Below, in pieces: positions 5,804-6,555 of a stretch of 15,712 nt of DNA. The notes beneath the pieces were generated by a model. That model saw nothing but the letters and a program-made list of their open reading frames with translations. It was not told the DNA's origin and ran no database searches. The stretch lies in IMG/VR virus record IMGVR_UViG_2700989173_000009. The stretch is one strand, 5' to 3'. A program made the position numbers and the translations under genes. How positions within the stretch are numbered: position 1 is the first letter of the stretch; every line of letters begins with the position of its first letter. The DNA is from a virus. Its lineage: Duplodnaviria > Heunggongvirae > Uroviricota > Caudoviricetes.

Positions 5804-6082
5804 ATGCACACTTCAGGGAAATTTAATAAATCATTCAAAAAACGCAGAGACAGAACAGAACCGAAATATCGCGCGTTAGACATGACAGAGCACGCTTTAA
5901 AGGTGGCAATCAGAACGATAGACCGCCACGCGGGGGAAGGATACGCGAAAGCACATCCCGAACTGATAAGCGCATTCATGACCACGACGGCGGCAAATTT
6001 TGCCACGCTGACAGAGCGGGAGATTGCCGAAGCGGAACAGGTAACAACAATCAACGTTAAAACCGGAGAGGTGGAATCATGA
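5804..6082 (+). CDS. Hypothetical protein, 92 aa
   Basis: ATG at 5804 downstream of GAGGGGG (spacing rather long, about 12 nt); first ORF after the origin; overlaps the next ORF (ATGA). No recognisable motif. Confidence 0.5.
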   Translation: MHTSGKFNKSFKKRRDRTEPKYRALDMTEHALKVAIRTIDRHAGEGYAKAHPELISAFMTTTAANFATLTEREIAEAEQVTTINVKTGEVES

Positions 6083-6384
6083 GCGAACCAAAATTTGGTG
6101 AAAAATTTTACAAGCACAACGGACGGATCACGATTCTGCAAATAAGCGCAGCTACACCAGGCTGGTGGGTTGAAACAGACGAAGGATCCTCACCCGTGGC
6201 ATCATGGGAGCTTTGTGTGCTTAGTTACCCTGACCGCGATGTGTATCAGGATATTCTGCCTGTGATATCCACTGACAAAGGCATGAAACCCGTAGACATC
6301 AAAAACATGGGGTTTCAGTGCGTAATGCTCACTGAAAAAATGATGGAAGAGATGAAAAAGAACAATGCCGGATCGCTTCACTGA
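6079..6384 (+). CDS. Hypothetical protein, 101 aa
   Basis: ATG at 6079 with a strong Shine-Dalgarno GGAGAGGTGG; translationally coupled to the previous ORF. No recognisable motif. Confidence 0.55.
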   Translation: MSEPKFGEKFYKHNGRITILQISAATPGWWVETDEGSSPVASWELCVLSYPDRDVYQDILPVISTDKGMKPVDIKNMGFQCVMLTEKMMEEMKKNNAGSLH

Positions 6385-6393
6385 GGTGGCAAT

Positions 6394-6555
6394 ATGACAG
6401 CACAAATTGCAGCTTACGGGCAGCTGGTGGGCGACCCGCTGGTAAAACAGAGCAGCAAGGGCACACCGGAGCCGCCAACGGAGAACTACGCAGACCTGAG
6501 AAATGCAGTAAATCGCACTTACGCAGACATGGGGCTGAGCAAATTAGCAGAGTAG
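6394..6555 (+). CDS. Hypothetical small protein, 53 aa (below the ORF-track cutoff)
   Basis: ATG at 6394 preceded by GAGGTGG; ends with TAG at 6553-6555, 22 nt before a strong intrinsic terminator. Translation: MTAQIAAYGQLVGDPLVKQSSKGTPEPPTENYADLRNAVNRTYADMGLSKLAE. Confidence 0.4.
   Translation: MTAQIAAYGQLVGDPLVKQSSKGTPEPPTENYADLRNAVNRTYADMGLSKLAE

Follow-up and report, generated by a model that had tools for sequence, protein, structure and literature searches.

Remnant of a conserved post-origin gene segment in a decaying capsid-forming satellite of Escherichia coli and Shigella

The segment downstream of the origin

The virus record IMGVR_UViG_2700989173_000009, a stretch of 15,712 nucleotides referred to here in its whole length as the window, carries three short open reading frames (ORFs) on the + strand between its replication origin and its packaging genes, encoding proteins of 92, 101 and 53 aa (ORF1 or orfA, ORF2 or orfB, and ORF3; Table 1). 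An earlier, sequence-only reading had described them as a translationally coupled accessory cassette in a satellite of the phage-inducible chromosomal island (PICI) type, closed by a terminator and possibly holding helper-interference or anti-phage cargo. The physical description holds. ORF1 and ORF2 share an ATGA at 6079-6082, ORF2 and ORF3 (6394-6555) are separated by a gap of 9 nt with the sequence GAGGTGG before the ORF3 ATG, the hairpin and T-run that follow are found by both scanning and folding (-12.9 kcal/mol, z = -2.5), and the ORF2 protein, which had been called acidic with a Trp-rich centre, is mildly acidic (isoelectric point, pI, 5.29) and contains three Trp. The assignment to a PICI-type satellite likewise stands, on Pfam gene content and on collinear islands. 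What does not stand is the cassette as a self-contained unit, since the three frames are instead what is left of a conserved post-origin segment, orfA-(orfB)-ssb-perC, where ssb is the gene for single-stranded DNA-binding protein (SSB) and perC that for a PerC-family protein. We regard it as close to certain that the window holds the post-origin segment of a decaying capsid-forming PICI (cf-PICI), composed of two intact small genes, an SSB::PerC remnant and a scar terminator.

Upstream of ORF1 lies an iteron-type origin whose repeats (for example TGTCTACC and TATCTACC) are resolved by the repeat search into direct families D1-D6 and inverted pairs I1-I18, with a GC content of 33% at the origin centre (5500-5650, GC profile). 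This architecture agrees with the published description of Gram-negative PICI origins (PMC6092414). On the + strand, the scan of 5515-6578 returns no promoter-like site and no terminator save one weak internal hairpin, and the interval between the primase gene (pri) and ORF1 has neither a sigma-70-like promoter nor a terminator. With no promoter-like site or convincing terminator lying between the primase gene and ORF1, the cassette would seem to form the end of the replication operon.

Deletions, the third reading frame and the state of the island

In intact relatives the origin is followed by orfA (83-92 aa), optionally orfB (101-104 aa), ssb, a pchE-like perC gene, a terminator, a gene for a 74-aa protein and a further terminator, and the orfA-(orfB)-ssb-perC segment is present in EcCIEDL933/O-island 51 (OI-51), EcCICFT073 and many other enterobacterial PICIs. 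The E. coli island L002 (NZ_AP028094; compared loci are given by L numbers) shows this order with genes of 83 aa, 104 aa, 136 aa (SSB) and 82 aa (PerC family), a terminator, the 74-aa gene and an identical terminator. By blastn, window 5828-6466 corresponds to L002 7001-7647 and window 6455-6599 to L002 8143-8288; the two blocks adjoin in the window and stand apart in L002, so that about 0.5 kb is absent from the window. The breakpoints overlap by 12 bp at this first deletion and, over window 6577-6599, by 23 bp at a second. At the first, AGCAAGGGCACAC is joined to CGGAGCCGCC with a CAC microhomology (compared with L002 8118-8178), which places SSB residues 1-24 in frame with PerC residues 54-82. 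ORF3, which the sequence-only reading had taken for a short gene, is thus an in-frame deletion fusion in the alignment with L002.

The fusion accounts for the behaviour of ORF3 in family searches. Residues 21-49 match positions 50-77 of 90 in the PerC profile PF06069 with 22.9 bits against a cut-off of 22.6, so that the Pfam match is limited to the C-terminal third of PerC, and in the near-identical island L001 the NCBI annotation pipeline labels both halves of ORF3 as pseudogene fragments, which the fusion likewise explains. ORF3 has no SSB Pfam match and the oligonucleotide-binding (OB) fold of about 100 residues is missing; the intact SSB of L002 matches PF00436 with E = 1.4e-15 and ends in ...DGIPF. 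With the N-terminal 53 residues of PerC deleted as well, ORF3 cannot be a functional member of either the SSB or the PerC family. Homology to replication factors, which the sequence-only reading had named as evidence that would count against it, was found in part: ORF3 starts with the first 24 residues of a satellite SSB, and ORF1 lies upstream of ssb in all contexts examined.

The second deletion removed the 74-aa gene. The window holds one copy of the 23-bp repeat CAGCCGGAGCAATCCGGCTTTTT, of which the relatives have two copies flanking this gene, and the single terminator of the window has a left flank matching the first L002 copy and a right flank matching the second, so that the terminator is itself a deletion scar. 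In L002 (8386-8610) the 74-aa gene, bracketed by two identical terminators, forms a self-contained insert, and this bracketing makes it prone to recombinational loss. The end of perC and the terminator are also overlapped by a 37-aa RefSeq coding sequence labelled 'trigger factor' (L001 8045-8158, L008 6913-7028), a name that is almost certainly spurious and spread by annotation.

Decay extends to the packaging genes. The capsid gene (6859-8016) has an in-frame TGA at 7684-7686 where L001 has TGG, splitting its reading frame into 6811-7686 and 7687-8016, and this copy of the satellite is probably unable to build its own capsids. The reading frames of int, alpA, the primase, portal and TerL are intact, as is the origin. 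The chromosome of Shigella flexneri SFBU1023 (L011, CP182556.1) is 100% identical over window 1804-6599 and 99.97% identical over 6577-9716 and keeps the 74-aa gene, and the window probably comes from a very close Shigella/E. coli relative with one deletion more; this match is the sole locus from a scan of genome contigs with the ORF1 alignment, a scan saturated by the low-complexity sequence REIAEAE. None of the complete E. coli genomes has both deletions.

The island as a whole is a decaying cf-PICI of the EcCIEDL933/OI-51 type, a satellite of E. coli and Shigella. This identity follows from the roxA-phoQ site and the architecture, which are those of O-island 51, the prototype cf-PICI (10.1101/2022.09.08.507074; PMC3378721). 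The roxA-phoQ islands L001 and L002 of E. coli are collinear with the window at 90-98% identity (blastn), phoQ lies 3' of the island on the opposite strand, and the island extends from int to about 13.5 kb. As expected for a cf-PICI, one orientation is shared by a 5' integrase gene, the gene for an AlpA-type regulator, and pri-rep with an iteron origin behind it; the head and packaging genes are the element's own and of HK97 type, tail and lysis genes are absent, and the size is about 15 kb (Pfam; collinearity with L001 and L002). An intact major capsid gene, also expected, is missing. The head and packaging set comprises capsid, S78 protease, portal, connectors, HNH and TerL and is supported by Pfam, with matches for capsid, Peptidase_S78, portal, HNH and TerL among them.

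Table 1. Features of the window, with coordinates, strand and the evidence for each assignment
Feature	Position	Strand	Evidence or remarks
Tyrosine integrase	1-1230	+	Pfam
AlpA regulator (Phage_AlpA)	1605-1793	+	Pfam
DUF4222 protein / RgdR, 99 aa	3471-3770	+	Pfam; RGD motif at residues 20-22; overlaps primase start
pri-rep replicase, D5/P4-type primase-helicase	3767..5515	+	Pfam PF08706 (D5_N), PF19263 (DUF5906), PF03288 (Pox_D5)
Iteron-type origin	5523..5760		TCTACC-core repeats on the left, inverse GGTAGAYA on the right, AT-rich centre
ORF1/orfA, 92 aa, basic, pI 9.05	5804..6082	+	phrog_1231; variable basic N-terminal tail and nearly invariant predicted helical hairpin (about residues 24-86)
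ORF2/orfB, 101 aa, pI 5.29, 11.5 kDa	6079..6384	+	phrog_27268; predicted SH3-like small beta-barrel with C-terminal helix
ssb remnant, first 24 codons, MTAQIAAYGQLVGDPLVKQSSKGT	6394..6465	+	Alignment to the intact 136-aa SSB of L002; junction sequences
perC/pchE-like remnant, last 29 codons and stop	6466..6555	+	Pfam PF06069; junction comparison
Intrinsic terminator, hairpin AGCCGGAGCAATCCGGCT at 6578-6595 and T-run	6577..6610	+	Terminator scan

Several features of the neighbourhood are recorded here in their own right. A second terminator-like hairpin on the + strand (6822-6858, GUCCUGG...CCAGGAC, -16.1 kcal/mol, z = -2.4), with U7 behind it, abuts the capsid ATG and might control the packaging operon as a regulated terminator or an antitermination target. 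The counterpart of the window primase in L001 is labelled 'DNA primase family protein'. The protein encoded at 3471-3770 corresponds to RgdR/ECs1581, the OI-51 regulator of type III secretion from the enterocyte effacement locus (LEE) and of motility (PMC3378721), and the interval between alpA and its gene (2606-3470), which falls in the other region singled out by the sequence-only reading, is strongly divergent among the window, L001 and L002, with fragmentary blastn matches. A run of N (masked or unknown bases) at 11118-11176 separates the HNH gene from that of the small terminase, and makes the start of the terS region unreadable. An Rfam scan of the window found no RNA family, and a DNA-level search of the phage collection gave no match.

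Two conserved gene families and their possible roles

As the sequence-only reading had stated, ORF1 and ORF2 lack any recognisable motif, with nothing matched in Pfam, NCBIfam or PADLOC, and Pfam scans of all members of the two family alignments return chance-level matches only (WAPL, COG5_N, GSKIP). Both nonetheless belong to catalogued families: residues 12-92 of ORF1 match positions 3-83 of 83 in phrog_1231 (E = 2.9e-51) and residues 1-101 of ORF2 match positions 1-104 of 104 in phrog_27268 (E = 5.1e-69), each of them unannotated. Together with these matches, pairwise ratios of nonsynonymous to synonymous substitution (dN/dS) of 0.11-0.55 for ORF1 and 0.13-0.36 for ORF2 identify both as real genes under purifying selection.

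ORF1 homologues form 166 clusters, nearly all from Escherichia/Shigella with additional members in Citrobacter, and the window protein shares 99% identity with P0009, an allele of wide distribution. Alignment A1 shows a nearly invariant core, GEGYAKAHPELISAFMTTAAANFATLTEREIAEAEQVTTINVK, behind the variable N-terminal tail, and AlphaFold2 predicts helices at residues 20-43 and 52-86 packed as a two-helix hairpin; neither a fold search nor a profile search of the PDB gave a match. Searching 50,697 phage records by tblastn found no ORF1, and 5 of 72,556 plasmid records contain it, some of them clearly chromosomal. In every context examined ORF1 lies upstream of a satellite ssb (L002, L008-L010, L012, L013, L017-L020, L027/28). 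The orfA stop codon overlaps or directly adjoins the start of ssb in O157 OI-51 (L008), ATCC 25922 (L009), EcCICFT073 (L010), Citrobacter (L012), L013, L017-19 and L020, and in the lineage of the window (L001, L002, L027/28) ORF2 stands between the two. One apparent context without ssb (L013-L016) was discarded as a gene-calling artefact, the ssb there having an internal stop. The linkage of orfA to ssb spans three replicase types (DUF927, D5/P4 primase and RepA/AAA_25) and two packaging modules (HK97-type and the Phage_cap_E/decoration type), which argues for ORF1 as a backbone gene tied to SSB and not swappable cargo, as far as gene order can indicate.

The ORF2 family is small. Among 1.84 billion representative proteins searched exhaustively with HMMER there were 7 matches, and a profile search gave 61 clusters, all of 94-140 aa and all 'hypothetical', from Escherichia, Salmonella, Klebsiella, Citrobacter, Serratia, Morganellaceae and Xenorhabdus. 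The family motif is GWW...SPVAAWALC...ILPV...GM.P, in which W29, W30, A41, W43, C46, P61 and G68 are invariant among the 44 members of alignment A4. The window protein differs from the common allele at one or two residues and has A44E in a column that is Ala in at least 90% of these members. Of 5,426 complete E. coli genomes, only 82 carry the window-type subfamily, most of them Shiga toxin-producing (STEC) or enterohaemorrhagic (EHEC) isolates, as against 1,364-1,721 matching genomes for the surrounding module. No ORF2 was found by tblastn in the same 50,697 phage records, and a single one of the 72,556 plasmid records contains it. A search of BFVD (predicted viral structures) with the ORF2 fold returned nothing below E = 0.1. 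Matches of the ORF2 profile to transcription activator-like (TAL) effector chains in the PDB (E = 3e-17) were rejected, being sums of weak 'ILPV...' matches to 34-residue TAL effector repeats with no single stretch passing.

In all contexts examined the ORF2 family keeps to the origin, as the first gene after the iterons in L003-L007 and L020-L028 and the second in L002/L027. What follows it varies: ProQ and PerC genes in L003; a gene of 65 or 79 aa, with the capsid gene next, in L004-L007 (Morganellaceae-type cf-PICIs); ORF1, ssb, ProQ and PerC in L020; a 139-aa gene and ssb in L021; capsid genes in L023/24; and an integrase-like gene, a 104-aa gene and ssb in L025/26. Judged by gene neighbourhoods, this is an unnamed Enterobacterales family that occurs, among the contexts examined, in satellites only. 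The EcCIEDL933-type and EcCICFT073 islands, published as fully mobilisable (10.1101/2022.09.08.507074; PMC6739421), have no member of it, so that the family is dispensable for the satellite life cycle. A gene with a ProQ/FinO domain (an RNA chaperone fold) lies between ssb and perC in many enterobacterial PICIs (L003, L013-L016, L020, L021, L025), some of which have two or three PerC paralogues in tandem. With SSB, ProQ and PerC, the post-origin segment looks like a set of nucleic-acid-binding proteins.

These observations can be joined into a model. A helper phage would trigger the AlpA-dependent early operon, with transcription running through pri-rep and the origin into orfA-(orfB)-ssb-perC and ending at the terminator. 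The stop/start overlap would supply orfA, a small basic helical hairpin as predicted, in fixed proportion to the satellite SSB, with which it most likely acts on the single-stranded DNA of the replicating satellite. The product of orfB, a dispensable, satellite-only protein predicted to be an SH3-like barrel, most likely acts soon after induction, by binding a protein of the host, the helper or the satellite. In the window, where ssb and perC are destroyed, the capsid gene is truncated and orfB has A44E, the cassette is probably functionally eroded. Taken as a whole this account is, in our judgement, somewhat better than an even bet, with orfA and orfB resting on sequence and models; the particular assignments of ORF1 to satellite replication with SSB and of ORF2 to a protein-binding accessory role are tentative, each falling a little short of even chances. 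A bolder version, in which the ORF2 family is an undescribed class of satellite effector, of about 100-130 aa, made at once upon induction and binding a host or helper protein, with ORF1 a dedicated partner of the satellite SSB, is possible if on the unlikely side. Such an effector would seize replication resources or hinder competing phages, and as a manipulator of host or helper ORF2 would add a new component to PICI biology.

Several points weigh against the model. Adjacency and coupling suggest, and do not prove, a physical or functional partnership of orfA with SSB. L021 and L025 have a different small gene directly upstream of ssb, so that this slot is not specific to orfA. Co-transcription with pri is deduced solely from absent consensus signals. 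The ORF1 model is of low confidence (predicted local distance difference test score, pLDDT, 66) and the ORF2 fold comes from one good model out of five, built on a 7-sequence alignment. A mildly acidic barrel encoded beside an origin could, lastly, equally be a replication factor.

The reading of the cassette, in practice ORF2, as anti-phage or helper-interference cargo, a small inhibitor of a phage component, starts from a legitimate expectation, because the region just downstream of pri/ori is a published accessory and immune region of PICIs and carries immune genes (Tai) in some of them (He et al., 2024, PMC11364771). ORF2 fits this in being optional, found only in satellite contexts, predicted to adopt a small barrel typical of protein-binding modules, and enriched in STEC/EHEC isolates, which are rich in lambdoid prophages. 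Its origin-adjacent position is however fixed across Enterobacterales at 23-34% identity and looks inherited with the backbone, no PADLOC model matches, and no phage homologue was found whereas most Tai homologues are in phages (PMC11364771); tagged TaiEcA, at 26 kDa, is also far from the 11.5 kDa of ORF2. ORF1, ssb and perC are conserved backbone, and where published islands have orfA-ssb-perC, these genes are not the source of phage interference. The structural and remote-homology check proposed with the sequence-only reading gave a predicted two-helix hairpin for ORF1 and a predicted SH3-like barrel for ORF2, with no known defence model matched, and of the undescribed system that reading had envisaged in the cassette only ORF2 is still a candidate, for an undescribed accessory function. 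We consider interference cargo improbable. A module for host-gene (virulence) regulation, in which ORF1/ORF2 would act with the PerC/PchE-like regulator on LEE type III secretion, motility or other regulons, is very unlikely. In its favour, RgdR, which regulates LEE and motility and is itself small (PMC3378721), and PerC-family proteins come from the same islands, ORF1 is small, basic and predicted to be helical, and in C. rodentium LEE1 is repressed by a PerC-like protein of a PICI (PMC11773190); but the PerC-like proteins of EcCIEDL933 and EcCICFT073 are without effect on LEE1 as summarised in PMC11773190 with reference to Porter 2005, ORF1 is coupled to ssb and not to perC and is present where perC is absent (L009, L012, L017-19), many strains and genera that have the module are LEE-negative, and perC is destroyed in the window.

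The erosion already described can also be carried further, to the view that the window cassette no longer functions at all and that ORF1 and ORF2 are intact-looking relics in an island unable to replicate productively or to package. The destruction of ssb and perC, the loss of the 74-aa gene, the TGG>TGA change in the capsid gene and A44E in ORF2 at so conserved a column favour it, as does identity over 4.8 kb to a chromosome of Shigella flexneri; Shigella is known for the accumulation of pseudogenes. ORF1 and ORF2, however, stay very close to widespread or common alleles, the frames of int, alpA, primase, portal and TerL and the origin are intact, and loss of function is not readable from sequence alone. 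We rate complete loss as rather doubtful. The anti-phage, virulence and loss-of-function readings, which keep some probability for ORF2, are poorly supported for ORF1 and ORF3. The preferred reading remains that of a degraded backbone segment with two conserved genes. Its main value is corrective, in that what looked like a compact three-gene system belongs, scarred by deletions, to a well-known satellite backbone, with its short third 'gene' a fusion artefact. It also draws attention to ORF1/phrog_1231, which is among the most conserved genes of E. coli PICIs, though an unstudied one, and is tractable in the established EcCIEDL933 and EcCICFT073.

Relation to known systems

At E <= 1 none of the three ORFs matches a family in PADLOC-DB v2. 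The Tai region resembles that of ORF2 in lying between pri/ori and the packaging genes and in its direction of transcription (PMC11364771), but there is no detectable relation between the proteins, and the comparison is one of size (26 kDa) and phage distribution (phi80 orf63) only. Rpp proteins are 144-153 aa long, with an N-terminal winged helix-turn-helix (HTH) domain resembling lambda TerS and a helical dimerisation domain (RppC structure), in contrast to the predicted all-beta ORF2 and two-helix ORF1; profile searches of the PDB (A1, A3) retrieved no Rpp or TerS chain with ORF1 or ORF2, and neither did fold searches. For ORF3 the counterparts are the PerC/Pch (PF06069) and SSB (PF00436) families, residues 25-53 resembling the C-terminal part of PerC and residues 1-24 the N-terminus of the island SSB.

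EcCICFT073, the prototype cos-type PICI of E. coli, shares with the window its attachment site, primase type and origin type, and in its orfA homologue (72% identity, E = 6e-46) there is the same coupling to ssb, with perC next. It differs in having no ORF2, in its intact ssb and perC, and in carrying Phage_cap_E-like capsid and decoration genes with RppA instead of the full HK97 head module. Deletion of c1503 (rppA) alone restores lambda plating (PMC6739421). The same work (Fillol-Salom 2019) was considered as a direct test of the EcCICFT073 homologues and set aside, since its pBAD clones start at c1499, a capsid-like gene, and so omit the homologues of ORF1, ssb and perC; the indirect result with the c1503 deletion is what can be used.

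The closest system is EcCIEDL933/OI-51 (CP-933C of E. coli O157:H7), which does not block its helper phages and was described with a putative SSB and the PerC homologue PchE (PMC3378721). Like the window it occupies the roxA-phoQ site and has int, alpA, RgdR/DUF4222, a replicase and an iteron origin, together with HK97-type capsid, protease, portal, HNH and terminase genes, and its post-origin order is orfA (89% identical over residues 12-92), ssb, perC (PchE) and the terminator-flanked 74-aa gene. Unlike the window, the O157 island has a DUF927 replicase in place of the D5/P4-type primase, has no ORF2 so that the orfA stop overlaps the ssb start, and has suffered no damage to ssb, pchE, the 74-aa gene or the capsid gene. 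Seen beside it, the element in the window is of a known kind in degraded form, and what is left of interest in it is a pair of conserved genes found only in satellite contexts.

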